DNA of 64,000 nucleotides from assembly GCA_050011835.1 (NCBI GenBank), contig JBEKII010000002.1, positions 8,086-72,085 on the forward strand, in the 5' to 3' direction. A program made the translations under genes and the position numbers. The notes under the pieces were generated by a model that was not told the DNA's origin, did not search any database, and saw only the letters and a list, made by a program, of their open reading frames with translations. Origin of the DNA: Minisyncoccia bacterium. GTDB lineage: Bacteria > Patescibacteriota > Minisyncoccia > Phycocordibacterales > Phycocordibacteraceae. This document shows, piece after piece, positions 11,462-64,000 of the stretch; the first letter of the stretch is position 1; each line of letters starts with the position of its first letter.

Positions 11462-13290
11462 GCGTTCTCACGACGCGGATTTATCACCTTATTCGCGAAG
11501 GAGTTCCCGCGGATCATATTCTCGCTGTCACGTTTACCAACAAGGCGGCGCGCGAGATGCGCGAGCGGGTGCGCGTCATGCTGGGAAATGACGGACCGCT
11601 CCCGTTCGTCGCCACCTTTCATGGTCTTGGTCGTGAAATTCTTGAAAGTTACGGAGGGGCGGCTGGAATCCCGCGTTTCTTCAGTATCTATGACCGCGCC
11701 GATTCGGAAAAGGCGATTGCCACGGCGCTTAAAACACTTGATGTTGGAGCGAAAGAGTTCTCGCCCCGCATGATATTGAGCCGTATCTCGCGTTTGAAGG
11801 GCGAAGGGATACGCGCGCAGGAGTTTTATGAGAAACGCGAACGCAGAGGTTTTAGCGCCCGCATTACTGCAGAGACATGGCTTCTCTATGAACAGATACT
11901 GCAAAAGGAGAAGGCACTTGACTTTGATGACCTTATCGCTTTGCCTGTCCAGCTACTTGAAGAAAACGACGATATTCGTGCGCGCATACAGGATCGCTGG
12001 CGCTATATTCACATTGACGAGTATCAAGATACGAATGAGTTGCAGGAACGATTCGCGGGTCTTCTCGTAGAGAAACACAGGAATCTTTTTGTTGTCGGCG
12101 ACGGAGACCAGGCAATATACGGATGGCGCGGGGCGAAAATGGAAAATATTTTGAATTTTGAAAAAAAATATCCCGAGGTGCAGACGATTATCCTTGAGCG
12201 TAACTATCGTTCAACGAAAAATTTGGTTGATGCGGCGAATGCGGTTATTGAGAAAAATAAAAATCGCAAAGAAAAATATTCAACAACCGAGCATTCGGCC
12301 GGCGAACCAATAATCGTTCATATGGCGATAAATGCCGAGGATGAAGCGCGGTGGATTGCGATGAAAATACGATGGTTGATGAAGGGCGGCATTGCTCCGG
12401 AAGAGATTGCAATACTTTTCCGTACTAATTTCCAATCGCGCGCGCTTGAAGAGGGATTGCTTACCGCCGGCGTGCCATATAAATTGCTCGGTACGCATTT
12501 CTTCGCGCGCAAAGAGGTGAAAGATGCGCTCGCATGGATGCACCTCGCACTGGATCCGTCGCGAGAGGCGGACAAGATTCGCGCGGCGGCTGCGCCGCCG
12601 CGCGGTATTGGCAAGATCACACTCGGTAAATTGGCGGCAGGACAGCGCGCGCACTTGCGCGCCGGCGAACTCGCGAAAGTTAAGCAATTTGAGAGTGTCA
12701 TCGCCGAACTCGAAAATGCTGCCCTTACGCTTGTACCGTCTGAATTCGTCAAACTCGTCATTGAAAAAAGTGGAATGCGTGATTATTATTTAGGACGAGG
12801 CCTGCTTGCTGGCAGGCAGGGAAGCGAGGAAGACCGGGAACGTTTTGAAAATGTTGAGGAGCTCGCCTCTGTTGCTGTGCGGCATGACAATGTCGCCGGT
12901 AAAGAGGGTATCGCTGCGTTTCTCGCCGAAGCCGCGCTCGCGAGCGACCAGGATGAAATGGACCGGGATGCAAAAACAGGAGTAATGCTGATGACCGTTC
13001 ATGCGGCAAAAGGGCTTGAATTCAATACCGTTTTCGTGAGCGGCATGGAAGAAGGTCTTTTCCCGCATGAAGGTTCGGGCGATGAGGACGACCGCGACGA
13101 AGAAGAGGAACGGCGCCTTTTTTATGTTGCGATGACGCGCGCGAAGGCGCGCCTTTACCTGACGTTCGCGCGCGTTCGCAAAATTTATGGCAGTGATTAC
13201 CTTACCGAGCCGTCTTCTTTTCTCGCCGATATTGATAATTCGTTAATGCTTTATGATGAAACTAATGGAGAAGAAATTATTCAGGCCTGA
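11344..13290 (+). CDS. UvrD/PcrA/Rep-family SF1 DNA helicase
   Basis: Walker A (AGAGSGKTRVL), motifs Ia-VI (TFTNKAAREM, DEYQDTN, VVGDGDQAIYGWRGA, VMLMTVHAAKGLEFNTVFV). Confidence 0.85.
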   Translation: MRYILIVRYLEGLNDAQKRAVLATDGPILVLAGAGSGKTRVLTTRIYHLIREGVPADHILAVTFTNKAAREMRERVRVMLGNDGPLPFVATFHGLGREILESYGGAAGIPRFFSIYDRADSEKAIATALKTLDVGAKEFSPRMILSRISRLKGEGIRAQEFYEKRERRGFSARITAETWLLYEQILQKEKALDFDDLIALPVQLLEENDDIRARIQDRWRYIHIDEYQDTNELQERFAGLLVEKHRNLFVVGDGDQAIYGWRGAKMENILNFEKKYPEVQTIILERNYRSTKNLVDAANAVIEKNKNRKEKYSTTEHSAGEPIIVHMAINAEDEARWIAMKIRWLMKGGIAPEEIAILFRTNFQSRALEEGLLTAGVPYKLLGTHFFARKEVKDALAWMHLALDPSREADKIRAAAAPPRGIGKITLGKLAAGQRAHLRAGELAKVKQFESVIAELENAALTLVPSEFVKLVIEKSGMRDYYLGRGLLAGRQGSEEDRERFENVEELASVAVRHDNVAGKEGIAAFLAEAALASDQDEMDRDAKTGVMLMTVHAAKGLEFNTVFVSGMEEGLFPHEGSGDEDDRDEEEERRLFYVAMTRAKARLYLTFARVRKIYGSDYLTEPSSFLADIDNSLMLYDETNGEEIIQA

Positions 13291-17820: not shown

Positions 17821-20034
17821 ATGCCACGCACCCTCATCACTTCGTTCGCCGCTCTCATTCTTGTCATAGGCGCGGCGGGCGCGTTCGCGCCTGCCGCACA
17901 TGCCGCTCCACCCGCCAACTGTAATACCGGGAACAGGAGCTTGGGACAACTATGTTGTAGCAATGATTACTGTGATTCCACCTCTGGTTTGACTTGTAAC
18001 ACAACCAGTTACACCTGTGTCAACAGCACCGGCAACGCTGGCCCGAGCGTCACCAACCCGACCAGTCCCGCCGCTCAAGGGACACCGATATTATCGAGTG
18101 ACCTGGATTCTGGGTACAACCTCATCATGGTCAAAATTATGGGCCTCTTTGCGTGGCTCGTCGGCGTCTCGGCGATTACGCTTGACAACGTTGTGTATTA
18201 CACCGTTGTCGTAATGGGGAACTATGTAAAAGGTCTCACGGCTGTAGGCGTCACCTGGCGCATTTTGCGCGACCTGGCCAACATCGGGCTTATATTCGGC
18301 TTTATCGGGGCAGGTATCGCAACGATACTTGATGTTGAGAAATATGGGTGGGGTACGAAAATGCTTCCGATGCTTTTGGTCGCCGCGGTCGTCCTTAATT
18401 TTTCACTTTTTATTTCTGAAGCAATGATTGACGCCACCAATCTCTTTGCGACCGAATTCTATACGCAAATTAACGGTGGCGTGCCGGCAGGAACACAAGA
18501 ATTGAACTTTGATAACATCAAAAACGCTCAAAATAATGGCATTGCAAACAAGATTATGGGGCAGTTAGGTCTTCAGACCATCTATGGCAATGCGATAACG
18601 AATCCACAAATTTTCCAGGGCGCTAATCCGTGGTTCGTCGGCTTTATGGGCGTTATACTTTTTCTCGTCACCGCATTTGTGATGTTTTCGCTCGCATTTA
18701 TACTCATTATACGTTTCGTCGCGCTCATTTTCCTCATTCTTCTCTCCCCGGTCGGTTTTATGGGACTCGCGATACCCCAGCTAAAGTATCGAGCAGGTCA
18801 GTGGTGGACTAATTTCCTTGAGCAAATTGTCGTCGCGCCGGTCCTGCTGCTCTTGCTCTACGTGGCTCTTGCGGTTATCACTGATGCACAGTTTCTCACC
18901 GGTTTTGGCGCGACTAAAAACCCCAACGCATGGACTGGTTGGGCCGCTTCCGGAGGTCTCACCGGCTTCGCAGGCCTATTACTCTCTTTCCTCGTTGCGA
19001 TTGGGCTCCTTCTGGTGGTTGTTATCAAGGCAAAAAGCATGTCTGCCGCCGGCGCCAACTGGGCGACGAAGACCGCGGGAAAACTCACTTTCGGGGTAAC
19101 GGCATCAGTTGGACGCCGCACTGTTGGTCGCGCATCTAATTATACTGCGCGCAAGATTCGTTCCAGTGAGTGGGGCCAGCATAGCGAGCTGGGCCGGATG
19201 TTTGCCGGACTTGCCGACCGCGGAGCGAAAGCGAGTTTTGATGTGCGCGGTGCCGTAGGCGGTAGTTTGAAGAGTTATGTTGACGTTGGAGCCGCGCAAA
19301 AGGGCGGCTATCGAGCGCGAGAAGAAGAATTAATTAACGCCAGGACCGAATATGCCAAGTCGCTACGCCAATCGCCGGAACAAATAAAAATGGTTGAAGA
19401 TGCCACTGATGCGAAAAAGAAAGCAGGAGAGGAATATAAGAAAAATATGGCTCCACTCGAGGCGGAAGAGCAAAAACAACTCAAAATAACAAAAGAGATT
19501 GTTGACGCAAGCAATGAAGAGCTTAAACTTGAACGGAAAAAACTCGAAGAAGCGCGTCAGTCGTCGCCTTCTATGAACCCATACCGTGATTATCAGATTA
19601 AAACATACGAAGCGGCATATAATGAGAAATTACTTGCGCACCAAAAGCTCCAGGAAGAAGAAAGCAAGAAACTAGATCCAATCCGCACGAAAATTGAGGA
19701 TGAGAAGAAACACTATACAGGCGTAATCACCAAGCAACAAGAAATTATTGATAAGAATACAAAGGGAGGTATTCAAAAGGAGTACGCAGAATCGCTACAG
19801 GAAAAAACACTTCTTGGAATTCCGCGTGCGCCGTATGACTGGACAACAGCGGTCGGTTCGGCTCGGCACGAAGCGGCTGGTAAAATTCTTGGCGAGTTAA
19901 AGAAGGACCCAACCCAAATAGCCGTGGAAAAGCTTCAAGCTGCAGTAGAAAAAGCGGAGAAAGTAACAGGCCCACGCAGTGAGGAAAAGAAGGGGGGAAG
20001 TAAACCAGAAAATACGGAAAAGAAACCCACATAA
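17821..20034 (+). CDS. Polytopic membrane protein with VirB6/TrbL-like architecture. It has a signal peptide, a Cys-rich ectodomain, ~6 TM helices and a long K/E-rich coiled-coil tail.
   Basis: Start refined to the Met before the signal peptide (MPRTLITSFAALILVIGAAGAFAPAAHA). There is a Cys-rich segment (CNTGNRSLGQLCCSNDYCDSTSGLTCNTTSYTC) and multiple long hydrophobic helices. The C-terminal ~330 aa are charged coiled-coil. The topology resembles TrbL/VirB6 conjugal-transfer proteins. This is a structural inference, not a motif match. Confidence 0.5.
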   Translation: MPRTLITSFAALILVIGAAGAFAPAAHAAPPANCNTGNRSLGQLCCSNDYCDSTSGLTCNTTSYTCVNSTGNAGPSVTNPTSPAAQGTPILSSDLDSGYNLIMVKIMGLFAWLVGVSAITLDNVVYYTVVVMGNYVKGLTAVGVTWRILRDLANIGLIFGFIGAGIATILDVEKYGWGTKMLPMLLVAAVVLNFSLFISEAMIDATNLFATEFYTQINGGVPAGTQELNFDNIKNAQNNGIANKIMGQLGLQTIYGNAITNPQIFQGANPWFVGFMGVILFLVTAFVMFSLAFILIIRFVALIFLILLSPVGFMGLAIPQLKYRAGQWWTNFLEQIVVAPVLLLLLYVALAVITDAQFLTGFGATKNPNAWTGWAASGGLTGFAGLLLSFLVAIGLLLVVVIKAKSMSAAGANWATKTAGKLTFGVTASVGRRTVGRASNYTARKIRSSEWGQHSELGRMFAGLADRGAKASFDVRGAVGGSLKSYVDVGAAQKGGYRAREEELINARTEYAKSLRQSPEQIKMVEDATDAKKKAGEEYKKNMAPLEAEEQKQLKITKEIVDASNEELKLERKKLEEARQSSPSMNPYRDYQIKTYEAAYNEKLLAHQKLQEEESKKLDPIRTKIEDEKKHYTGVITKQQEIIDKNTKGGIQKEYAESLQEKTLLGIPRAPYDWTTAVGSARHEAAGKILGELKKDPTQIAVEKLQAAVEKAEKVTGPRSEEKKGGSKPENTEKKPT

Positions 20035-52498: not shown

Positions 52499-52746
52499 GA
52501 CCCCGCCAGAAGAAAGTTCGTTATTGCCGCGAGTACGAGTAGTACTGCGATAACAATTGTCGCATTGAATAGAAATTTTTCGGCGCCTCTGCGCTTATAA
52601 AACGTCGACGCGAAATTATCGCCTCCGAAAGCTCCGCCCAAGGTCGCGCCGCGCTGCTGGAGCACGATGCCGACAATGAGGAGGATTGAGAGGATGATTT
52701 CCACGTACGGCAATGCCGATACGAATGCCTCCATCTGTAGGTCCAT
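52495..52746 (-). CDS. secG: Preprotein translocase subunit SecG
   Basis: Two TM helices flanking the conserved QQRGATLGGAFGG motif. Confidence 0.8.
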   Translation of the reverse strand: MDLQMEAFVSALPYVEIILSILLIVGIVLQQRGATLGGAFGGDNFASTFYKRRGAEKFLFNATIVIAVLLVLAAITNFLLAGS

Positions 52747-53291
52747 CTTATCACGAAGTGTGTGAGTGGCGCAAGCAAGCGAGCAGGATAGCCGTATTGT
52801 GAGGTGGATAAAGGTGTTTCAGGAAAAACGAAAGAAAATCAGAATCATCAATCGTATTCACGAAGTATCAGTTTTATTCAACTTTTATCACTTTTTGGGC
52901 AACCCGTGGGCAATCGATTTTCATCGATTCTCTCGGCTTTATCAGAAAGAACAGTACAGGAAAAAAGCGATAAAGATCTCAAACACCACTGGATGGTGGC
53001 TTTTGAGTATAGAAAGTGATTCATGTTTTCAGGTCCTATACTAAATGTCCATCTTGAGCCGATTTAGTACCGTTTCGAATATGCTAAAGTTTGTGAGTGT
53101 GAGCGGCCTAAACCGCATGACTTTCGAGTCGTGAGGCATGGTCAAAAACCAGTCAAGAGCAAAGACCCCACCATAGGGATTGCCTTGACTGGTCCTGCAG
53201 GGAAACTTGCAGTGGATGGCCCTAAAAAGCTGTCACCCTGTGGTGGGATCTTTGCTATCCACCCGGGATTACCAGCAATCAATCCCGCCTT

Positions 53292-53964: not shown

Positions 53965-55746
53965 ATGCGACCATATAGGTATATGGGAGAATTTGAAAGC
54001 AAACTGAATGCCCTCATAAAGACCGACGCTCGGTTCCTAGACCAAGATGGAGAAGTTCTGAGAGCTAGTGTGGTAGATGCTGCATACAAGGGCGACTCAG
54101 CTCTCGTGGAGCTTCTTCTTGGATTTGACGAAGCAAAGATAAAATTCTTTTCTGATGTAAAAGGTGTACTCGCGTTTAAAACAGCCGATTTCGTTGCATA
54201 CATAGAAGACAAGAACTTTCTAAACGATTCATATACACGGTTCAAAAATAAAATCGGTCTTACGATAGATGGCAAATTTTTCGGCGAGCGGGGCGAGGTC
54301 GCTCTCACATGGCCATTCAAGGATTGCGTGCTTGAAGGTGGTATGACCAAAGAAGATCAGAAGCGTAAGGAGATTTTCTTCAATGAAATTCTCGCGCAGG
54401 ATGAAATAGATAAACTCTTCACGCCAAAGGTGCTAACTAATTGGAAGCGTTACACCGCAAAAGGTGAAGAAAAGATCAACAAACTCAAACGCGATGAGAG
54501 TGGTCTTATTAAAGAGAACTTAGTCATCAAAGGCAACAACCTTCTAGCTCTTCATACACTCAAACAACAATTCGCTGAGAAAGTGAAGTTGATTTATATA
54601 GACCCACCCTTCAATACCGGAACAGATTCTTTCTTATATAACGATGGATTTTCTCACTCGACCTGGCTTACTTTTATGAAGAATCGGCTAGAGATAGCGA
54701 AGCAACTTTTGACCAGAGATGGGAATGTTTTCATTCATATAGATGTAAACGAGTCACATTACTTGAAGATTCTTTGTGATGAAGTGTTTGGACGCGAGAA
54801 CTTCGTAGAAGAAATTACATGGGCCTATGGTTCCGCATCGGGTGGCCGTGCAGCAGGCGCAAAGCCCGTTAACATTCACGATTATATTCTGCACTATGCG
54901 CGCGAATACAGTTCCCGCAAGCAAAATAAAATCCATACGCCTTACACAGATAAGTATGTTGAGGATTGGTTCAAATATACTGACAAAGATGGACGACGAT
55001 ACCGCAGACGAATGCGCGAACGGAATGAAAAAGGAGAAGTAGTTTGGGAAAAACAATATCTAGACGAGAGCAAGGGCGTACCCCTCACAACAGTTTGGAC
55101 TGACATTCGGCAAGTCTATGCGGACCCGCGAGCATACAAAGAGAACCAGCGTGAACACACCGAGCTTATGGATGGTTTTTCAACACAGAAGCCTGAACGG
55201 CTCATGCAACGCATTCTTGAGATGGCCACTGACCCAGGCGATATAGTGCTGGATTATCATTTGGGGAGTGGGACTACTGCTGCCGTTGCACATAAAATGG
55301 GCCGTCAGTATATCGGAACAGAACAATTGCATTACGAACACAACGGTTCTGTGCCACGTTTACAGAAGGTGATCAAGGGCGATACAGCAGGCATCTCAAA
55401 AGAAGTTGGCTGGAAAGGTGGCGGCGATTTCGTCTACGCGGAACTTATGCGATATAACGAATTGTTCATAGGAGATATAGAGACCGCGAAAGACACAAAT
55501 GCTCTTCTTAAGATTTGGCAGCGCATGAAAGAAGAAGCATTCTTTAAGTTCAGTGTGGAGATGCAAGCGTTTGAGAATAGCATTGATACCTTTAAGACTT
55601 TGCCACTCGATAAGCAAAAGAAGATACTTTGCGGCGTTCTCGACAAGAATCAACTCTATGTGAACCTGTCCGAGATAGACGATGCAGAATTTAAAATCGC
55701 CAAGGCCGATCAACAGGCGACCAAAGAATTTTACGATGGTCGATAA
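53965..55746 (+). CDS. Type III restriction-modification system methyltransferase (Mod), beta-class N6-adenine/N4-cytosine MTase with an extra ~190-aa N-terminal domain
   Basis: Motif IV IYIDPPFNTG precedes motif I (VLDYHLGSGTTAAVAHKMGRQYIGTE). ENLVIKGNNLLAL and FSTQKPERL blocks are typical of Type III Mod. Confidence 0.8.
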   Translation: MRPYRYMGEFESKLNALIKTDARFLDQDGEVLRASVVDAAYKGDSALVELLLGFDEAKIKFFSDVKGVLAFKTADFVAYIEDKNFLNDSYTRFKNKIGLTIDGKFFGERGEVALTWPFKDCVLEGGMTKEDQKRKEIFFNEILAQDEIDKLFTPKVLTNWKRYTAKGEEKINKLKRDESGLIKENLVIKGNNLLALHTLKQQFAEKVKLIYIDPPFNTGTDSFLYNDGFSHSTWLTFMKNRLEIAKQLLTRDGNVFIHIDVNESHYLKILCDEVFGRENFVEEITWAYGSASGGRAAGAKPVNIHDYILHYAREYSSRKQNKIHTPYTDKYVEDWFKYTDKDGRRYRRRMRERNEKGEVVWEKQYLDESKGVPLTTVWTDIRQVYADPRAYKENQREHTELMDGFSTQKPERLMQRILEMATDPGDIVLDYHLGSGTTAAVAHKMGRQYIGTEQLHYEHNGSVPRLQKVIKGDTAGISKEVGWKGGGDFVYAELMRYNELFIGDIETAKDTNALLKIWQRMKEEAFFKFSVEMQAFENSIDTFKTLPLDKQKKILCGVLDKNQLYVNLSEIDDAEFKIAKADQQATKEFYDGR

Positions 55747-55754
55747 TTGCAAAG

Positions 55755-58337
55755 ATGCCACAACAATTTCTCCACGACGAATACGACGTACTCTCTCGAC
55801 AAAATCGAATAGATCGAACGATACCTGATTACCTCGTCTCGAACCTTAATCCCGAGTTTGTTCTACGCCCATATCAAGTCGAAGCATTCGCGCGATTCTT
55901 CGACTATCTCAAAAATTACGAAGGCAAGGAGTATCCGATACACCTACTCTTCAATATGGCCACCGGCTCAGGAAAGACCAACATCATGGCTGGGTTGATG
56001 CTATACCTCTACAAACAGGGGTATCGCAACTTTCTTTTTTTCGTCAACTCAAACACGATCATCAGCAAAACGAAGAATAGTTTTCTCAATGAATCGTCTC
56101 GTAAATACATCTTCAATCCCGCAGGAATCACAATAGATGGTAAACACATTGTTATAAGGCCGGTTTCCAACTTTGAAGATTCAAATGATCACGATATCAA
56201 CATCTGTTTTACCACATTGCAGAAACTACACGGAGATCTCACTATTGAGAAGGAAGGAATGCTTACCTATGAAGACTTCAAAAACAAAAAGGTAGTACTT
56301 CTTTCTGACGAAGCACACCACACACAAAAGCAAACAAAACAAAAGAGTCTCGGAGTTTCTTTAGAAGAGGCGAGTTGGGAGAATACCGTCGAAAAGGTAT
56401 TTCAGCAGAATGTCCACAACTTGCTGCTTGAGTTCACTGCAACGATGGATTTCGCCCATGGAGCTATCGTATCCAAATATCGTAATAAGATTCTCTACCG
56501 TTACGATCTGAAACAGTTCCGCAACGACGGGTATTCAAAGGATCCACAAATTTTATCGAGTGATACTGACAAAAACGGCCGTATGCTTCAGGCAATTATT
56601 GTTAGTCAATACAGACAAGAGGTAGCGACCGCAAATGGTATCTACCTAAAACCAGTAGTACTCTTTAAAGCGCAAAAAACCATTACGCAATCCGAAGAGA
56701 ATAAAGTACTTTTCCATAAATTAATTGGAGATCTTTCAGCCGCAGACATTAAAGAGGCACGGAGATGGAAGAATGAGGTGCTCGAGCGAGCATTTGTCTT
56801 TTTCAAGGAGCAAGGCATCACAGATTCTGTGTTAACGCGTAAACTTAAAGATGGATTTGCCGAGAGCAAATGTCTGAGTGTGAATGATGAGACACAAAAA
56901 GAACAGAACCAAATTCTTCTAAATTCGTTAGAGGATAAAGACAATCAAATACGGGCCATATTTGCCGTACAGAAGCTCAATGAAGGATGGGATGTACTCA
57001 ATCTCTTTGATATCGTCCGTTTATACGAAACACGTGACTCAAGAAACAACAAGCCCGGACCGACAACAATTGCCGAAGCGCAACTCATTGGTCGTGGTGC
57101 TCGTTATTACCCATTTGCTCTATCAAGCGAACAAGATCGCTACACACGCAAATACGACTCAAGTCTGAATAGCGAGTTGCGTATTCTCGAGGAACTTCAT
57201 TACCACTGTCATCCAGGCGATAAATCCCGTTATATAGTCGATATAACAAACGCTCTTATACAAACAGGGCTCCTAGACGAACAGGAGACAGTTCGTGAAT
57301 TACGACTTAAAGAAAGCTTCAGGGAAACTAAGTTCTATAAAAGTGGCGTGGTGTTTGCCAATGAACGCAAAAAGCGTTGTTACAATCATGTCCGATCTTT
57401 CGATCAGCTTGGCGTGAAGCGTAAGAATATTAGTTACACTGTGTTTTCTGGAATGGGAGCAGAAGAAGGAGTCTTTGCCGATAGGAAGACGCCCAAAGCG
57501 ACAGTTGCCATAAGTACAAAAGATGTAAAAGTCGCGGATATTGAACCGCATGTTGTTCGCGCAGCTCTTTCATATAACGACTTTTTTTCCTTTTCCAACT
57601 TTAAACAATACATACCCGGCATTTCCTCGCTGGCAACTTTCGCTACAGATCCCAATTATATTGCCGGCCTTAGTATTACATTTCGAGGTTCTGAACACGA
57701 TCTCGAATTTTTAGACAACAGAACAAAATTTGCGGCTCTAATGGTTCTCCTTGCAGACATAGAAGCACAAATGAAGGAAGCGTTAACAGAATATGAGGGC
57801 ACCGAAAGCTTCTTGCCACAGGCTGTCCGCCTTGTCTTTACTGACAAGAAAGTAAAAGTACGTATACCAAAAGAAACGATTTACGATGAGGGTCGTCGTG
57901 TATTTCTCGAGGACAAACCTTGGTATGTGTTCGAAACACAATACGGAACGAGCGAAGAAGATTCTCTCGTTGATCTCATCGGCCGATATGTAAGTGACTT
58001 TAAGAAAGAATTCCGTGAGGTCTATTTAGTACGCAATGAACGACAGCTGAAAATCTATAACTTTTCTGATGGTCGTGGTTTCGAGCCGGATTATCTCCTC
58101 TTTCTAATCGGTAAAAAAGGGCAAAACTACACTTACCAACTCTTTATTGAGCCAAAAGGCCAACACCTGCGAGAATATGATTTATGGAAGGATCAATTTC
58201 TTGAGGAGATACGAACTCGCTTTAAGGATAAAATCTTCACAGCTGAATCGAAGACCGGATATCGAGTTATAGGAGTACCGTTCTATAACAGCGAAAATGA
58301 AAATGAATTTGTCGAGAAAATGCTCAGTGTTTTGTAG
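55755..58337 (+). CDS. Type III restriction endonuclease Res subunit (SF2 helicase-nuclease)
   Basis: Walker A MATGSGKTN, DEAH box (LLSDEAHH), helicase motif VI (QLIGRGAR). 860 aa, starting 9 nt after mod. Confidence 0.8.
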   Translation: MPQQFLHDEYDVLSRQNRIDRTIPDYLVSNLNPEFVLRPYQVEAFARFFDYLKNYEGKEYPIHLLFNMATGSGKTNIMAGLMLYLYKQGYRNFLFFVNSNTIISKTKNSFLNESSRKYIFNPAGITIDGKHIVIRPVSNFEDSNDHDINICFTTLQKLHGDLTIEKEGMLTYEDFKNKKVVLLSDEAHHTQKQTKQKSLGVSLEEASWENTVEKVFQQNVHNLLLEFTATMDFAHGAIVSKYRNKILYRYDLKQFRNDGYSKDPQILSSDTDKNGRMLQAIIVSQYRQEVATANGIYLKPVVLFKAQKTITQSEENKVLFHKLIGDLSAADIKEARRWKNEVLERAFVFFKEQGITDSVLTRKLKDGFAESKCLSVNDETQKEQNQILLNSLEDKDNQIRAIFAVQKLNEGWDVLNLFDIVRLYETRDSRNNKPGPTTIAEAQLIGRGARYYPFALSSEQDRYTRKYDSSLNSELRILEELHYHCHPGDKSRYIVDITNALIQTGLLDEQETVRELRLKESFRETKFYKSGVVFANERKKRCYNHVRSFDQLGVKRKNISYTVFSGMGAEEGVFADRKTPKATVAISTKDVKVADIEPHVVRAALSYNDFFSFSNFKQYIPGISSLATFATDPNYIAGLSITFRGSEHDLEFLDNRTKFAALMVLLADIEAQMKEALTEYEGTESFLPQAVRLVFTDKKVKVRIPKETIYDEGRRVFLEDKPWYVFETQYGTSEEDSLVDLIGRYVSDFKKEFREVYLVRNERQLKIYNFSDGRGFEPDYLLFLIGKKGQNYTYQLFIEPKGQHLREYDLWKDQFLEEIRTRFKDKIFTAESKTGYRVIGVPFYNSENENEFVEKMLSVL

Positions 58338-58474: not shown

Positions 58475-59061
58475 ATCAAATAATAATGACCACCGCGACC
58501 TCCACAATTTTACTATCCAGTCCTCAATTCAATGCAATCAATGCTTCGTTGCATAGCATTGCCTTCTCGCTTCAAAATCAGTCTTTTTTGAATACGCAGC
58601 TCTTCGCGGCTGTAGTTGGTGCCGCTTTGGGGCTAATGCCTTCATTGTATTTGCTTTACAAAGATAGGCCAAGAATAAAAGTTAAAGTGGGTCACATTCT
58701 GGTCCCAATTCCATCAATCAGTCATATAGACAACGGCTTCTCGGTCGCCATCTCCAATAGTGGCAGAAGGCCGATAACAGTAGAGAGGATATTTCTTCCG
58801 TTTAAAGACGGAGAGTCGCTTGTCTTCACTAGCGAATCAAGTTTTGTAGGTGGTTCCAGCGGGTTGCCTAAAGTACTTGGCGAAGGAAATTCTCATAATG
58901 TCGCGGTTCTGGCAGGAGAGGTAGCGGAGGCCTTCTTAAGGAAACAATCCTATCCCGTCGCGGCTTGTTATGGTGATGCTCTCGGCAATGTCTACAAATG
59001 TAAGACAACACAGGAATTTTGGGACACGATGTTTAGAGTCCAAGCTAGCGATTCTAACTAG
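58459..59061 (+). CDS. Hypothetical membrane protein
   Basis: One TM helix (LFAAVVGAALGLMPSLYLLY). No recognisable domain. The start is uncertain. Confidence 0.4.
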   Translation: MAGAINQIIMTTATSTILLSSPQFNAINASLHSIAFSLQNQSFLNTQLFAAVVGAALGLMPSLYLLYKDRPRIKVKVGHILVPIPSISHIDNGFSVAISNSGRRPITVERIFLPFKDGESLVFTSESSFVGGSSGLPKVLGEGNSHNVAVLAGEVAEAFLRKQSYPVAACYGDALGNVYKCKTTQEFWDTMFRVQASDSN

Positions 59062-59083
59062 GCTCGACTGCTATACTGTTCGC

Positions 59084-59935
59084 ATGAAAGTTAATTTCTC
59101 TTCTCGCCCGGTTCAATACACCATCGTTGGAATCATCCTTATCGTCTGTCTCGGCATCACAGTTTTTGTGACAGGAAAGGAGCTCTTGAAACTTGCCGGA
59201 TCGAATCAAGACTTCACCACAGCCACAGGAGGCAAATGCAACATTGCGATTATTCCATTAGTCGGGCAGATCTTCGCTTCTCAAGCTGATGCCGATGCCC
59301 AGAACGCGTCCGACAACAGTTCAACGGTTTCTGCGGAGTATGTTCTTCAAGAAATAGAACGCGCTCAAAATGACAGATCAATCAAAGGCGTTGTTCTTCG
59401 TGTTGATTCCCCCGGAGGTTCGCCGGTTGGAGGCAGTCTCATAGCAAACGCTCTGAAAAGGTTGAATAAGCCGTCAGTTGCTCTTATTTGGGGGCAAGGC
59501 GACTCCGCTGCATATCTCGCGGCTACAGGTGCAAACACCATCATCGCTTCGCCATCATCGGACATCGGTGACATAGGTGTTACGGATTCGTATCTTGATC
59601 AAAGCGGAAAGGATATACAGGACGGTCAGAAGTTCATACAAATCGCCGCTGGCACATACAAGGACACAGGGAATCCGGACAAACCGCTCTCATCCGATGA
59701 GCAGGCGTTATTGCAACAAGAAGTAAACGAGGTGTATCAAAACTTCGTTCAAGCAGTGGCGAAGAATCGCGGGATGTCGGTTGACGCAGTTAAAGATCTT
59801 GCAGACGGAGAATCGTTTGTTGCTTCAACTGCTACAAGCACAGGTTTGATTGATTCATTGGGCGATTCCGAAACAGCACGCGTCTGGTTTCAACAAAAGT
59901 TAGGTAAATGGTCTGATCCAGTGTTGTGTGAATGA
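59084..59935 (+). CDS. sppA: Signal peptide peptidase SppA (S49 family), membrane-anchored
   Basis: Start refined to MKVNFSS. TM anchor, then an S49 fold with the catalytic Ser context (GQGDSAAYLAA) and Lys. Confidence 0.8.
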   Translation: MKVNFSSRPVQYTIVGIILIVCLGITVFVTGKELLKLAGSNQDFTTATGGKCNIAIIPLVGQIFASQADADAQNASDNSSTVSAEYVLQEIERAQNDRSIKGVVLRVDSPGGSPVGGSLIANALKRLNKPSVALIWGQGDSAAYLAATGANTIIASPSSDIGDIGVTDSYLDQSGKDIQDGQKFIQIAAGTYKDTGNPDKPLSSDEQALLQQEVNEVYQNFVQAVAKNRGMSVDAVKDLADGESFVASTATSTGLIDSLGDSETARVWFQQKLGKWSDPVLCE

Positions 59936-60678: not shown

Positions 60679-61166
60679 TCATACCTTGGCTCGTTCAACT
60701 TGTAGGCGATAGAAGAGCAAAACAGTACGAGGTATCTTAATATCTTCTCCACGCTCGTTTTTGGCGTCTATGTAAGTAATGGAGCGTAGAGCTTTCTGAC
60801 CTTTCTTGACAGTGAATCCAAGCTTTAACCACTGCGCAAAAGTTCGGGCATTTTGATACGGATCATATCTTGCTGCCTCCGCTTCTCCCCAGCGTTCACT
60901 AATTTGATTTCTGATCATCGTGCTTGTTAGTTCCGAGCCAGTGAAAGGCGTCGCAACAAGTTCTTCAACAGACTTCATACGCATCTCTTGCGGGGAAGAA
61001 GTATCCTCTTGCACGCTTCACGCATCGCTTCTTCTCGTGATTCGCCCTCTGATAAAACTGTAATTCCATCGTTGGCGATTACTGAATAGCCGTAGATGTC
61101 AGGCAGTTCTTCGACTTCAGAAGTGTGTTCATTCCAAACACGCCGATGAATCGGTTGTATATACAT
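60679..61166 (-). pseudogene. ArdC-N-like ssDNA-binding (antirestriction/conjugation-associated) gene, split into two overlapping frames
   Basis: Track ORFs 60975..61166 and 60679..61014 overlap by 40 nt on the same strand. The downstream part contains YDPYQNARTFAQWLKLGFTVKKGQKAL, similar to the ArdC_N/DUF1738 motif (spyWlTfkQakelGgqVrKGEkg). Confidence 0.45.
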
Positions 61167-61508
61167 AATGCTTATTCTCTTAACTAATAATGACTAACGA
61201 AAACTGAGTGGTATTGAAAAGGTGGGGTGGGGGAGTTATTCACTTTAGAGTTCCAAGGAAATGGACCTCCTCATACAGTACGGTACCGGTCTGCAAGTTT
61301 GAAAAATTCTCATCACGCGATAAACTCTTCGTCTTTTAGGATTACCACCCACCATTTTCAGAATTTCATTGGCGTCTATAAATTTTTTCCAATTTTCTGA
61401 TAATTCGCTCGTCTACGCTTTGACATTTGTCAGATGAGTACTCTAGTAAAGTGAGTAGGTGGTATGAAAAGTACACAAAGTACCGTGCTTAATAGGTTCG
61501 CCCGCAGA

Positions 61509-61558
61509 GGAGTAGCGATCGCTTTCGTACCACACGAACAAGCACCGGTCGCTACTCC
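61509..61558 (+). repeat. 10-bp perfect inverted repeat (GGAGTAGCGA / TCGCTACTCC) with a 30-nt loop, upstream of the PrimPol gene
   Basis: Read directly from the sequence. Candidate ssi/origin or regulatory hairpin. Confidence 0.5.
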
Positions 61559-61581
61559 TTTGCGTTTATTCTTCATTTATT

Positions 61582-62262
61582 GTGGTTATGAATTCATCTA
61601 CAAGTACAGCAGAGATCAAAAAAGATTTAAATGAAAACAAAATCCTAGAATACGGCAAATGGTATGTGGAAGAAGGGCTCACAATTATTCCAATCGGGAG
61701 CGATGGCAAACCGCTTCTCTATTCGTGGAAGAGTTTTGCAAAGAGCGGAACTCGCGCCACGACCGAAGATGTTATTCAGTGGGTTAGACAATGGCCCGAT
61801 TTGAGATGGGGACTGGCTACCGGCAGAGGTATGGGCATTATCGTTATCCATCTGAAGTCAGAAGAAACCATCAATCAATGGCCTTCCACTGTGTGTTCAG
61901 AAACAAGCGACGGGGGTATAGATTTATTCTTCCTTCATCCGGGCATTTTTTTCCGTTCCAATGTGAAAGTCAGAAGCAAAAAAGAATTCATGCCGGACAT
62001 CGATGTCATCGGCGAAGATGACTATGTGATTTTGCCGTTATCGTTGAGTAGCGGAGAACTTCCTTGTGAAGGATGGATCAGCGCGCCCGATGATACTTAT
62101 TACGCCGGAATTCCAGATGATATCCGCTCCTTAATTCTTGAGGATCCGGACTGCATTCTTACGGAAGTGCCGGAAGGTGTTCCGCTTCCTGAAGTGAAAG
62201 GAAGGAACGGCAGCGTTGATAAAAGAATTGCGAGGATAACAGGAACGGAGTATGAGCAATGA
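61582..62262 (+). CDS. Bifunctional DNA primase/polymerase (PrimPol, AEP-fold) N-terminal domain protein
   Basis: LTIIPIGSDGKPLLYSWKSF...WGLATGRGMGIIVIHLKS...GGIDLFFLHPG...IDVIGEDDYVILPLS matches the Prim-Pol (bifunctional primase-polymerase) pattern. Confidence 0.7.
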   Translation: MVMNSSTSTAEIKKDLNENKILEYGKWYVEEGLTIIPIGSDGKPLLYSWKSFAKSGTRATTEDVIQWVRQWPDLRWGLATGRGMGIIVIHLKSEETINQWPSTVCSETSDGGIDLFFLHPGIFFRSNVKVRSKKEFMPDIDVIGEDDYVILPLSLSSGELPCEGWISAPDDTYYAGIPDDIRSLILEDPDCILTEVPEGVPLPEVKGRNGSVDKRIARITGTEYEQ

Positions 62263-63718
62263 ATATAAGCCGAGAGAATCGTCGGCCATAAAGATTGTAA
62301 ACATGGTGCTGGAAAATCCCGGCATCATCCTATTCAGCGATGAGTACGGCGTTGCCCATGTAAAATTTCCGGTCGGCGGTCATTCAGAAATATGGCCGTG
62401 CAAAAGCAGCGCCTTCACTCGTTGGATCAGCGGCGAGTACTACCAATTCACTCACGGGAAAACCATAGCGGGTCGAGAAAGCACAAAAGACGCTTGTAAT
62501 CTTCTTGAAGCGTGGGCTGTCAATAAAGGAAAAGAACACAAGCTCTATAATCGCATCGGAGAAACATCGGATGCGACTTGGTACGACTTAGGCGACGAAG
62601 AATGGCGGGCGGTAAGAATAACAAAAAGCGGCTGGGAAATCGTGACAGATGTTCCAATTCTATTTCGCAGATTCTCGCATCTTGCTCCTCAAGTAGCTCC
62701 AGCGAGAAACGGTTCGGTGAAAGATATTTTGCAGTTCGTAAATGTTACCAGCCCGGAACAGCAGACGCTCTTCCTCGTTCACTTGGTATCCATGTTCATA
62801 CCCGGATGGCCACACCCGGCGCTCTATGTGTATGGTTCACAAGGTTCTGCGAAGTCCACCCTAATCCGTATTGATCGTAAGTTGATCGATCCGTCTAAGA
62901 TTGAAGTGGTGGGGCTGACTCGCCACGAGAAGGAATTGGCTCAGCAGTTAGGCCACCATGCCTTTCTCGCTTTAGACAATGTTTCAGATATGCCTGATTG
63001 GATCGCCGATATTCTCTGTCGTGCAATCACAGGCTCCGGCTTCAGCAAGCGCGAACTTTATTCAGACGATTCCGATATCATTCGTCATGTGATGGCGAAT
63101 ATCGGAATTAACGGAATCAACATCGCGTCCAATCGCGGCGACTTGCTTGAACGCAGTCTTTTACTGAAACTAGAACGCGTAAGCAAAGGGGATAGGAAAC
63201 AGGAACACGAACTTATGGCTGACTTCGAGCTAGCACGCCCGAAGATTCTTGGTGCCATTTTTGATGCTGTGGCGAAAGCAACGGCGATAAGACCATCCAT
63301 CAAAGTGGACGAGCTGCCGCGTATGGCAGATTTCGCTTTGTGGGGTTGCGCCGTCTCCGAAGCATTGGGAATTGGGCAAAAAGCGTTTCTCGACGCGTAC
63401 TTTCGAAATATAGGAAATCAGAGCGAGGAAATGATCAGCGGCAATACTGTCGCAACGATTCTAGTTAGCATCGTTGATTCTCATTACGGAGAATTTCCAT
63501 GCGAGAATCCTACGGAGCTTTTCAAGGCTTTCAAGGATCGCGCCTTTACAGAGCAGATCATGGATCACCGTCTTCCGGCTAATCCAGCGGCTTTTATGCG
63601 TGAACTAAATCGCATCAAAACCCCGCTTGAGGAAATGGGGTATCAAATTCAAACCAATAGCGATCGCAGCATAACCATTCGAAAAATCACAGCGGAACCT
63701 GAAGCGCCGTCGTCGTAA
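62252..63718 (+). CDS. P-loop NTPase of the phage/plasmid primase C-terminal (P4/D5-like SF3 helicase) type
   Basis: Overlaps PrimPol by 11 nt. Walker A YGSQGSAKST, Walker B-like LALDNVSD. The domain order matches PrimPol-helicase replication proteins of mobile elements. Confidence 0.6.
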   Translation: MSNEYKPRESSAIKIVNMVLENPGIILFSDEYGVAHVKFPVGGHSEIWPCKSSAFTRWISGEYYQFTHGKTIAGRESTKDACNLLEAWAVNKGKEHKLYNRIGETSDATWYDLGDEEWRAVRITKSGWEIVTDVPILFRRFSHLAPQVAPARNGSVKDILQFVNVTSPEQQTLFLVHLVSMFIPGWPHPALYVYGSQGSAKSTLIRIDRKLIDPSKIEVVGLTRHEKELAQQLGHHAFLALDNVSDMPDWIADILCRAITGSGFSKRELYSDDSDIIRHVMANIGINGINIASNRGDLLERSLLLKLERVSKGDRKQEHELMADFELARPKILGAIFDAVAKATAIRPSIKVDELPRMADFALWGCAVSEALGIGQKAFLDAYFRNIGNQSEEMISGNTVATILVSIVDSHYGEFPCENPTELFKAFKDRAFTEQIMDHRLPANPAAFMRELNRIKTPLEEMGYQIQTNSDRSITIRKITAEPEAPSS

Positions 63719-63727
63719 GACGCGATA

Positions 63728-63869
63728 CAGCGATTGCAGCCATTTGTGGGCATCTTGCAGGGAACTGCACAACCCATCTGTCCGTTAAGAAGAAGAATTA
63801 AGAGGCACCGGTGATCATCTGTGGTCATTTGCTGCTCGTACGGGTACCCACAAATGGCTGTAATCGCTG
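63728..63869. repeat. 23-bp near-perfect inverted repeat (CAGCGATTGCAGCCATTTGTGGG / CCCACAAATGGCTGTAATCGCTG, 22/23 matching) flanking a 96-bp core
   Basis: Read directly from the sequence. The core contains a TGCAG-GGAA-CTGCA hairpin. It lies immediately after the helicase stop, at the window edge. Confidence 0.6.
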
Positions 63870-64000
63870 CGATAGCAGATAAAACCATTGACAATGAAAA
63901 TCGCAAGAATACAATATGGTCGTGTGGGATGAATCCTGCATTGTTCTAACTAGCACTATTTTTGTACATGTCTTGTATATGTCCCTCTACTGTAATATTG

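Follow-up and report, generated by a model that had tools for sequence, protein, structure and literature searches.

A conserved, strand-specific leader structure in front of the primase and helicase genes of a Minisyncoccia integrative element

What is the hairpin that lies directly upstream of a primase-helicase gene pair in a Minisyncoccia bacterium, a member of the candidate phyla radiation (CPR)? We address this question in a 64,000-nt stretch of DNA, here called the window (GenBank assembly GCA_050011835.1, contig JBEKII010000002.1, positions 8,086 to 72,085 of the forward strand). Two open reading frames (ORFs) near its end, ORF1 (61582, GTG, or 61588, ATG, to 62262) and ORF2 (62252-63718), encode homologues of a primase-polymerase (Prim-Pol) and of a helicase. 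An earlier reading made from the sequence alone had described this pair as the self-replication module of an integrative or plasmid element, and the perfect 10-bp inverted repeat before it, GGAGTAGCGA (61509-61518) and TCGCTACTCC (61549-61558), as a candidate origin, single-strand initiation site or operator. The ORFs are real and overlap by 11 nt, and the inverted repeat is present as described. The evidence set out below points to a different role for the repeat, as one helix of a strand-specific leader pseudoknot that probably regulates the genes behind it. Related loci that we fetched are labelled with L-numbers, L163 being the source contig, and homologous proteins with P-numbers.

Conserved, covarying helices in the leader

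The 10-bp repeat lies upstream of ORF1, separated by 23 nt from its GTG and by 29 nt from its ATG, and is the core of a longer hairpin. Its arms extend to 19 nt each (61503-61521 and 61546-61564), with Watson-Crick pairs at 89% of positions and G-T at the other two, and as DNA the hairpin has an energy of -21.5 kcal/mol (z = -6.0), a stability reached by none of 200 shuffles. This helix, which we call P2, joins block c (CGCAGAGGAGTAGCGATCG, 61503-61521, containing GGAGTAGCGA) to block c' (CGGTCGCTACTCCTTTGCG, 61546-61564), all blocks of the leader being given on the forward strand, and is followed by a U-rich tract (TTTATTCTTCATTTATT, 61565-61581). The P2 loop (61523-61545) is made up of the 3' arms of two further helices, a' (61523-61533) of P1 and b' (61535-61545) of P3. 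P1 has its 5' arm in block a (GTGGTATGAAA, 61459-61469), which pairs with 61523-61533. P3 is tentative in the window and stronger in L050, L073 and L013; its 5' arm, block b (61485-61500), consists of GTGCTT (61485-61490), pairing with 61540-61545, and GTTCG (61496-61500), pairing with 61535-61539, for an ungapped score of 6.0 (shuffle p ~0.03). The blocks follow the order a-b-c-a'-b'-c', so that each helix crosses the other two, and the linkers between helices measure 0-1 nt. On geometric grounds, P2 and P3 could hardly both be fully formed with linkers of this length, which suggests alternative states instead of one static structure. In addition, a' and b' can pair with each other in the window, lengthening P2 into one hairpin that is the minimum-free-energy fold. 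The leader (about 61459-61564) is either a pseudoknot or a two-state fold. As RNA, a 139-nt leader folds with z = -4.5 on the forward strand versus -3.0 on the reverse strand.

The structure lies between a promoter-like block and a start codon. The promoter-like block (61420-61449, forward strand) opens with TTGACA (61420-61425), ends with GAGTACTCTAGTAA and has a GTACTCT core that is kept in L167, L001, L097 and L166; since the spacing of its hexamers is non-canonical, we infer the transcription start that it would provide. A possible leader ORF of 56 codons (61464-61634, forward strand) begins at an ATG inside block a, crosses the structure and ends 47 nt into ORF1. The G-rich (~61222) and C-rich (~61346) tracts farther upstream, to which the sequence-only reading had also drawn attention, do exist, but the region 61170-61420 folds no better than shuffled sequence (z +0.23; 113 of 200 shuffles were at least as stable), and the G/C tract is missing from L167, the closest related leader. 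A repeat search of 61170-61590 found no iterons.

The nearest loci carry hairpins at the equivalent place, with different sequences. Alignment of the leaders showed that P2 is homologous across loci and that its loop is paired with the upstream block, forming P1. Conservation of the hairpin in homologous elements, whose absence had been set beforehand as a possible refutation, is therefore what we find. A covariance model of P2 also located a like structure in more distant loci, 3' of the helicase gene, where it immediately precedes a gene for a large serine recombinase. Searching all fetched loci for helices yielded 31 curated instances of the motif. The next gene encodes the primase-helicase in 9 of these and a serine recombinase in at least 17, the orientation of the motif is always that of the following gene, and in most instances the start codon comes 0-26 nt past P2. 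About half, mostly leaders of recombinase genes, have a TAnnnT (-10-like) hexamer ending 4-6 nt before P1.

The helices covary. In a 10-sequence alignment 91% of P2 is paired, versus 83% in shuffles and 46-55% when the partner arm is slid; in 9 of the 18 pairs both partners have changed, and covariation scores 0.416, versus 0.264 for shuffles, none of 500 reaching the observed value. Arms score higher against their cognate than against non-cognate partners, both in P1 (12.5 versus 7.3) and in P2 (17.3 versus 7.1). Between the window and its nearest relative, L167, the changes are compensatory (GCG/CGC to GTG/CAC in P2 and U-A to C-G in P1). The structure is also strand-specific: under symmetric scoring, G-U exceeds A-C on the strand of the gene by 95 to 25 (p = 8e-11, to be read, like every p-value for the leader, as an upper bound on the real support).

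The interleaved order with the third pairing is found in the window, L013, L029, L050 and L073, and ten other members are plain H-type pseudoknots, with a long 5' hairpin whose apical loop carries c. In the H-type leaders of L011, L012, L103, L104, L142 (6400-6539) and L069, the 5' strand of the long hairpin contains a conserved, U-rich and asymmetric internal loop, UUUUUUAUUG; many members have a similar UUUUAUU after P2. A third leader type was observed 5' of intact primase-helicase genes (L050 5125-5212, L109 2742-2828 and L142 2506-2593). It is an a-c-a'-c' pseudoknot with a helix of 24-27 bp (AAAGTCC / AATAAGCC at its start, GGATTTT / GGCTTATT at its end).

An ATG-started leader ORF of 38-58 codons occurs in the same frame in 8 of the 10 close leaders. 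Its start, a conserved TATG/CATG, lies in or at the edge of block a in seven of them and just past the arm in L128. One fixed frame runs through the structure, and the stop falls within a range from 15 nt upstream to 47 nt downstream of the main ATG.

We found no earlier record of this motif. Rfam 15 gave no match to the leader, only chance matches to miRNA and snoRNA hairpins that, at permissive thresholds, stayed far below gathering scores, and an Rfam scan of 12 related loci returned nothing at the motif. A degenerate DNA pattern of the leader picked out five loci in IMG/VR, none of which was confirmed by the covariance model, and in the literature on CPR mobile elements and on the LOOT RNA (see below) we found no description of it. 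Structured leaders are a known category, to which this motif is a new addition; its function is predicted.

Possible functions of the leader

We think it reasonably probable that the hairpin is a helix of a conserved cis-regulatory mRNA leader in front of the replication genes, possibly an attenuator that works together with the leader ORF. Such a leader would set the amount of primase and helicase made. P2 and its U-rich tail would form a conditional terminator or a barrier to initiation, and P1/P3 pairing, together with translation of the leader ORF, which starts in P1 and ends over the start of ORF1, would decide whether P2 forms. The outcome would be the passage or the blocking of RNA polymerase and ribosomes toward ORF1. 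If the leader ORF is translated, it would be the act of translation that matters, not the peptide.

This mechanism would be analogous to the control of plasmid rep genes by their leaders. IncB and IncI-alpha plasmids use a leader peptide and an activating pseudoknot, R1 couples tap to repA, and pT181 and pIP501 use attenuation. The resemblance lies in a structured leader before a rep gene, a pseudoknot made with a hairpin loop and a leader ORF that ends at or over the rep start, to which some members of the window motif add a terminator-like helix. Unlike these leaders, the window motif also precedes recombinase genes, its P2 has 17-19 bp versus 4-8 bp for the Inc pseudoknots, and no antisense promoter or countertranscript was identified for it.

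Several observations weigh against a regulatory mRNA leader. Transcription is deduced from the position between a promoter-like block and a start codon, while a sigma-70 scan made no call at 61420-61449, where the hexamers are non-canonically spaced. The p-values are upper bounds because the helix finder that supplied the motif instances tolerated G-U and because the instances share common descent, so that the statistics overstate their independence. Single-stranded DNA (ssDNA) of the same strand would give identical covariation, and P3 is statistically weak in many members. A U-rich tail follows P2 in only about one third to one half of the motifs (a comparable tail in 10 of 31), and termination is for that reason no universal read-out. 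In the window itself the P2 stem and its U-rich tail (7 T in 9) are terminator features, but the loop has 24 nt and a terminator scan made no call. Finally, the leader peptide is not conserved, and the ORF is absent from the leaders of L002 and L151.

Could P2 and the U tail instead end a stand-alone small RNA (sRNA) of about 110 nt that acts in trans, in immunity or copy control? We regard this as unlikely, although there is a precedent in satellite phage P4, the closest parallel among satellites that encode a D5-type helicase. In P4, the leader of the replication operon is processed to release the CI RNA, which stops transcription by pairing with leader sequences complementary to it (PMC4825925). 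P4 resembles the window in being integrative, in its D5-type helicase and in an untranslated leader that, 5' of the replication genes, has complementary blocks on the same strand (seqA/seqB/seqC; PMC4825925). In keeping with an sRNA, the D5-type helicase gene of this integrative element is directly preceded by a promoter-like block, a structured segment and a U-rich tail, and the order of blocks, a-b-c-a'-b'-c', is awkward as a single static fold. However, many members have no U tail, the start codon follows P2 within 0-26 nt, no C4/CI-type or other Rfam family matches the leader, and its block order is not collinear. We considered and rejected a second pairing site for the P2 loop, of the kind known from P4 and P1 c4, at the ribosome-binding site downstream: over the 110 nt downstream the loop scores 6.90 against cognate and 6.82 against non-cognate sequence. 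The likeness of the start region, GTGGTTATGAA, to block a is for the same reason treated as a coincidence.

A single-strand initiation site or origin, in which the hairpin would be a DNA stem-loop on the displaced strand for the primase or helicase of the element, is less probable still. The hairpin is stable, strand-specific and next to replication genes, as this role would have it, and covariation alone is blind to the difference between RNA and ssDNA of the same strand. The ssiA and ssiB hairpins of RSF1010, which are recognised by the RepB' primase, are likewise strand-specific and near AEP-like (archaeo-eukaryotic primase-like) genes. The window hairpin differs from them in its position, in its orientation rule, in its adjacency to a promoter-like block and in the degenerate primase beside it, since the neighbouring Prim-Pol is without catalytic motifs I and II. 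Moreover, in at least 17 related elements the structure precedes a recombinase gene, in the orientation of that gene and usually after a -10-like hexamer.

Further evidence against an origin at the hairpin comes from the region 3' of the helicase gene. Right after the helicase stop codon lies an inverted repeat with 23-nt arms (63728-63869; arms 63728-63750 and 63847-63869, 96% complementary and separated by 96 nt). L166, L001 and L168 conserve the sequence of its core, CATTTGTGG / CCACAAATG, and L002 has a degenerate form of it (TCTTGTGGG / CCCACAATG). The repeat is kept by sequence, not by covariation, and the spacing of its arms varies among relatives. It is a candidate origin or initiator-binding site, and a likelier origin than the P2 hairpin. 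In some non-CPR relatives (L022 4583-4745, L129 5442-5544, L131 4651-4761 and L135 4546-4705) short direct and inverted repeats lie densely just 3' of the helicase gene, with units such as GCGTCACT and TATCGTCA, and look like iteron origins.

A double-stranded operator, at which a dimeric repressor would shut off the replication genes, is very improbable. A palindrome between a promoter-like block and a gene does occupy the usual place of an operator, but the arm sequences change freely among relatives while complementarity is kept, and the excess of G-U over A-C is a single-strand signature. Arms of 19 nt set 24-35 nt apart, with interleaved complementary blocks, are also unlike operators. 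What speaks for a leader helix instead of an origin, initiation site or operator is the combination of a promoter-like block 5' of the structure, an abutting start codon, an orientation that is always that of the gene, the preponderance of G-U over A-C and, in sister elements, the position before a recombinase gene. Taken as an origin prediction, the hairpin would have misdirected an experiment. Least probable of all is that 61464-61634 simply encodes a 56-aa protein to which the hairpin is incidental: gene finders called the ORF in L164 and L165 and most close leaders carry it in the same frame, but the differences between close relatives are mostly non-synonymous (4 of 4 between L003 and L097 and, between L097 and L166, 5 of 8 codon differences), the helix arms have changed in ways that compensate at the RNA level and more distant members of the motif are without such an ORF.

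A degenerate Prim-Pol and a D5-type helicase homologue

ORF1 (61588-62262, forward strand) encodes a Prim-Pol/AEP homologue of 224 aa in which the fold is kept and catalytic residues are lost. Its identity as a Prim-Pol, which the sequence-only reading had proposed, is upheld by a profile match to PF09250 above the gathering score (36.8 bits, cut-off 22.8, E 6.6e-9) and by a sequence match to the prim-pol domain of pRN1 ORF904 (E 1.3e-5). Consistent with these matches, an AlphaFold model (core pLDDT, the predicted local distance difference test, 80-96) matched 1rni in Foldseek with E 9e-8 and probability 1.0, and NrS-1 was matched as well. Motif I reads VIHLK in place of hhhDhE (hhhDhD/E; D111-x-E113 in pRN1), and motif II reads GGIDLF in place of GGxHhF, with D where pRN1 has H145. 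The motif III aspartate is kept, I-D-V-I-G aligning with T-D-I-R-G. Three of the four catalytic residues are lost (D, E and H replaced by H, K and D), which makes a self-priming module doubtful, and because of this loss priming would probably be left to another enzyme. A 19-sequence alignment shows that the catalytic loss extends to the four closest fused homologues (P0003, P0004, P0006 and P0008), whose motif I is HxK, HxR or QxR, while the 14 more distant homologues retain DxE/DxD, H and D. Several equally close relatives, such as a 595-aa protein of L001, are without any Prim-Pol match in Pfam. The shared loss and these relatives therefore suggest a clade that is shedding primase activity and retaining the helicase. 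PADLOC returned nothing for ORF1 or ORF2, so a role in a defence system is unsupported.

ORF2 (62252-63718, forward strand) encodes 488 aa. The P-loop seen in it earlier is present, with Walker A at G195-K201-S202 and Walker B at D242-N243, and its assignment to superfamily 3 (SF3) agrees with the D5-type fold predicted for it, but the expected family match was not obtained: no family in Pfam, NCBIfam, PHROGs or PADLOC matched ORF2 (AAA_16 only, at E 0.13), and none of D5_N, Pox_D5, VirE, the P4 primase C-terminal domain and similar profiles did so. A sequence search of the PDB with a profile of 45 ORF2 sequences found generic P-loops only. A structural model from the 45-sequence alignment (pLDDT 90; pTM, the predicted template modelling score, 0.87) was more informative. 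Its top 50 Foldseek matches in the PDB were all D5-type proteins, including monkeypox virus (MPXV) E5, vaccinia D5, African swine fever virus (ASFV) PrimPol, the SaPI5 primase-helicase and NrS-1, with E of 2e-8 to 3e-7 and TM of 0.35-0.57, the best at probability 1.0.

Both Walker motifs are variant and yet conserved in the family. Walker A reads G195-S-Q-G198-S-A200-K201-S-T, with Ala in place of Gly before the Lys (consensus GxxxxGK[ST]); G195, G198 and K201 are invariant across the 45 homologues and A200 is conserved in at least 90%. Walker B reads F-L-A-L-D242-N243, versus a consensus of hhhhD[DE], with N243 invariant and D242 conserved in at least 90% of the same homologues. We therefore base membership on the predicted fold and the domain context, not on motif identity, and on these grounds ORF2 is a putative D5-type SF3 helicase homologue. 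The D-N pair in place of D-E/D counts against this assignment, in which ATPase activity is assumed; the catalytic base may lie elsewhere in the protein. ORF2 would serve as the replicative or initiator helicase of the element.

Among known D5-type primase-helicases (vaccinia D5/MPXV E5, ASFV C962R, SaPI5 Pri-Rep, NrS-1 gp28 and pRN1 ORF904), the D5_N and SF3 region is matched by the ORF2 fold, and the Prim-Pol domains of pRN1 and NrS-1 match ORF1. The order of primase then helicase is common to these systems and the window, and the two are fused in most homologues. Unlike these systems, the window has a split gene, an ORF2 with no profile match, variant Walker motifs and AEP residues that are lost in its clade. 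The dead Prim-Pol and the large, profile-less helicase family set this protein module apart from known members.

ORF2 homologues gave more than 2100 matches. Among the 120 covered by our domain survey of the matches listed, most are proteins of about 700-840 aa with an N-terminal fusion of primase type, the partners being PF09250 with or without PF08708 (PriCT_1), PF22763, PF01807 (DnaG zinc finger) and PF13362 (Toprim). Because the fused homologues align across the ORF1/ORF2 junction, the two ORFs are a natural split within the linker. In particular, residues 7-17 of ORF2 (PRESSAIKIVN) match the linker GPSQSTRLVN of fused relatives, and its N-terminal 17 residues are linker-homologous. A frameshift or sequencing error is ruled out as the source of the split, since contigs from three samples encode the identical Prim-Pol protein with an overlapping ORF2, and the split is found independently in L003 and L167.

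The closest of the ORF2 matches listed is a protein of a Minisyncoccia metagenome-assembled genome (100% identity), and the family is spread patchily over CPR phyla, Chloroflexi, Acidobacteria and archaea, a distribution typical of mobile DNA. Homologues are found in 16 IMG/VR contigs, in one Microbacterium phage and on 29 plasmids, including the 12-kb Methanothrix pH6Ac and Streptomyces pFP11. A metagenome scan with a single protein query found nothing, and an alignment-based scan added few close relatives. On pFP11, a theta plasmid, a Prim-Pol gene is followed by the ORF2 homologue (31.5% identity over 85% of the query) as in the window, which bears out the plasmid-borne Prim-Pol/helicase pairing invoked by the sequence-only reading; this homologue may be the experimentally defined RepA of pFP11. 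On pWTY27, RepB is predicted to be a primase/polymerase, and the RepA protein, classed as hypothetical, binds an inverted repeat within the iteron region (PMC3583192). Whereas the Streptomyces theta plasmids pFP11, pFP1 and pWTY27 have an iteron/inverted-repeat region, the window has only the one conserved downstream inverted repeat and no iterons.

A 13.07-kb integrative element and its relatives

We read the ORF1/ORF2 region as the end that controls replication in a 13-kb integrative element of this Minisyncoccia (CPR) bacterium, and here the mobile setting assumed at the outset is borne out by att repeats and an integrase. An exact 22-bp direct repeat, CGATACGAATGCCTCCATCTGT, forms attL inside the 5' end of secG (52717-52738, forward strand; L163 1130) and recurs as attR 2 kb past the end of the window, just after the integrase gene (L163 14195-14216). 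The number of such repeats expected by chance is 0, and the two copies bound an element of 13.07 kb. Many related elements adjoin tRNA genes; here the insertion site is a protein-coding gene, secG. On the source contig the helicase gene is followed by a gene with an HTH_17 domain (Xis-like) and a tyrosine integrase gene, and then by groES/groEL. Between the inverted repeat and these genes, a near-consensus promoter, TTGACA-16-TACAAT (63888-63915, forward strand), would drive an ORF-less stretch of about 200 nt (63888-64000, continuing to L163 ~12540). This stretch is partly conserved in relatives (e.g. CGTGCGGGAC), finishes with a terminator that has a long stem and a U7 run (L163 ~12466-12540) before the Xis-like and integrase genes, and may be another non-coding RNA. 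Outside the window, at L163 18881-18971, a 91-nt tRNA match abuts a LAGLIDADG_3 gene (18980-19981) on the same strand and may be an intron-containing or otherwise unusual tRNA locus.

The cargo includes type III restriction-modification (R-M) mod and res genes (53965-58337), an S49/ClpP-like peptidase gene (58970-59935) and a small ArdC-N-like (anti-restriction) ORF (60679-61014). Type I and II R-M systems, AAA_15 or HEPN genes are found in related elements, and elements of this type act as small defence islands. A LOOT RNA (Rfam RF03000) lies at 53105-53234 on the forward strand, scoring 67.2 bits against a gathering score of 46.4. LOOT was found in 8 of 12 scanned related primase-helicase loci, namely the window and seven others in which it is on the reverse strand (L001 5214-5340, L002 4572-4687, L012 3562-3681, L036 4160-4285, L050 4724-4850, L073 4403-4525 and L104 1509-1624). 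It usually diverges from, and lies just 5' of, the primase-helicase gene. From its presence in 8 of the 12 loci, LOOT looks like a component of this family of mobile elements. As a trans partner of the leader LOOT was rejected, because duplex energies were equal for cognate (-53.6) and non-cognate (-52.5) pairs; the two RNAs belong to the same element family but differ in structure and have no cognate complementarity.

Overall, the locus defines a recurrent type of element that brings together a primase-helicase, a recombinase, defence cargo and, in 8 of the 12 scanned loci, LOOT. Its helicase belongs to a family with more than 2100 matches that is nevertheless invisible to Pfam, and the clade-specific loss of Prim-Pol catalysis with the domain kept offers a clean case in which to ask about the role of a dead primase domain in a helicase replisome. 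The genomes of CPR bacteria are tiny, with few mobile elements or regulators known, and here the key genes of the element are fronted by an RNA structure that covaries and has no counterpart in Rfam. It is possible, although we put it forward tentatively, that the leader represents an undescribed class of leader RNA in small CPR integrative elements, a bistable pseudoknot switch of interleaved helices that co-regulates replication and recombination genes, with LOOT as the second RNA component. Such a class would be marked by three long helices in the rare order a-b-c-a'-b'-c' or by the H-type variant, and the orphan LOOT RNA would gain its first biological context. If the leader is a switch, it would provide RNA-level control of excision and replication, testable with reporters, in organisms where protein regulators are scarce.

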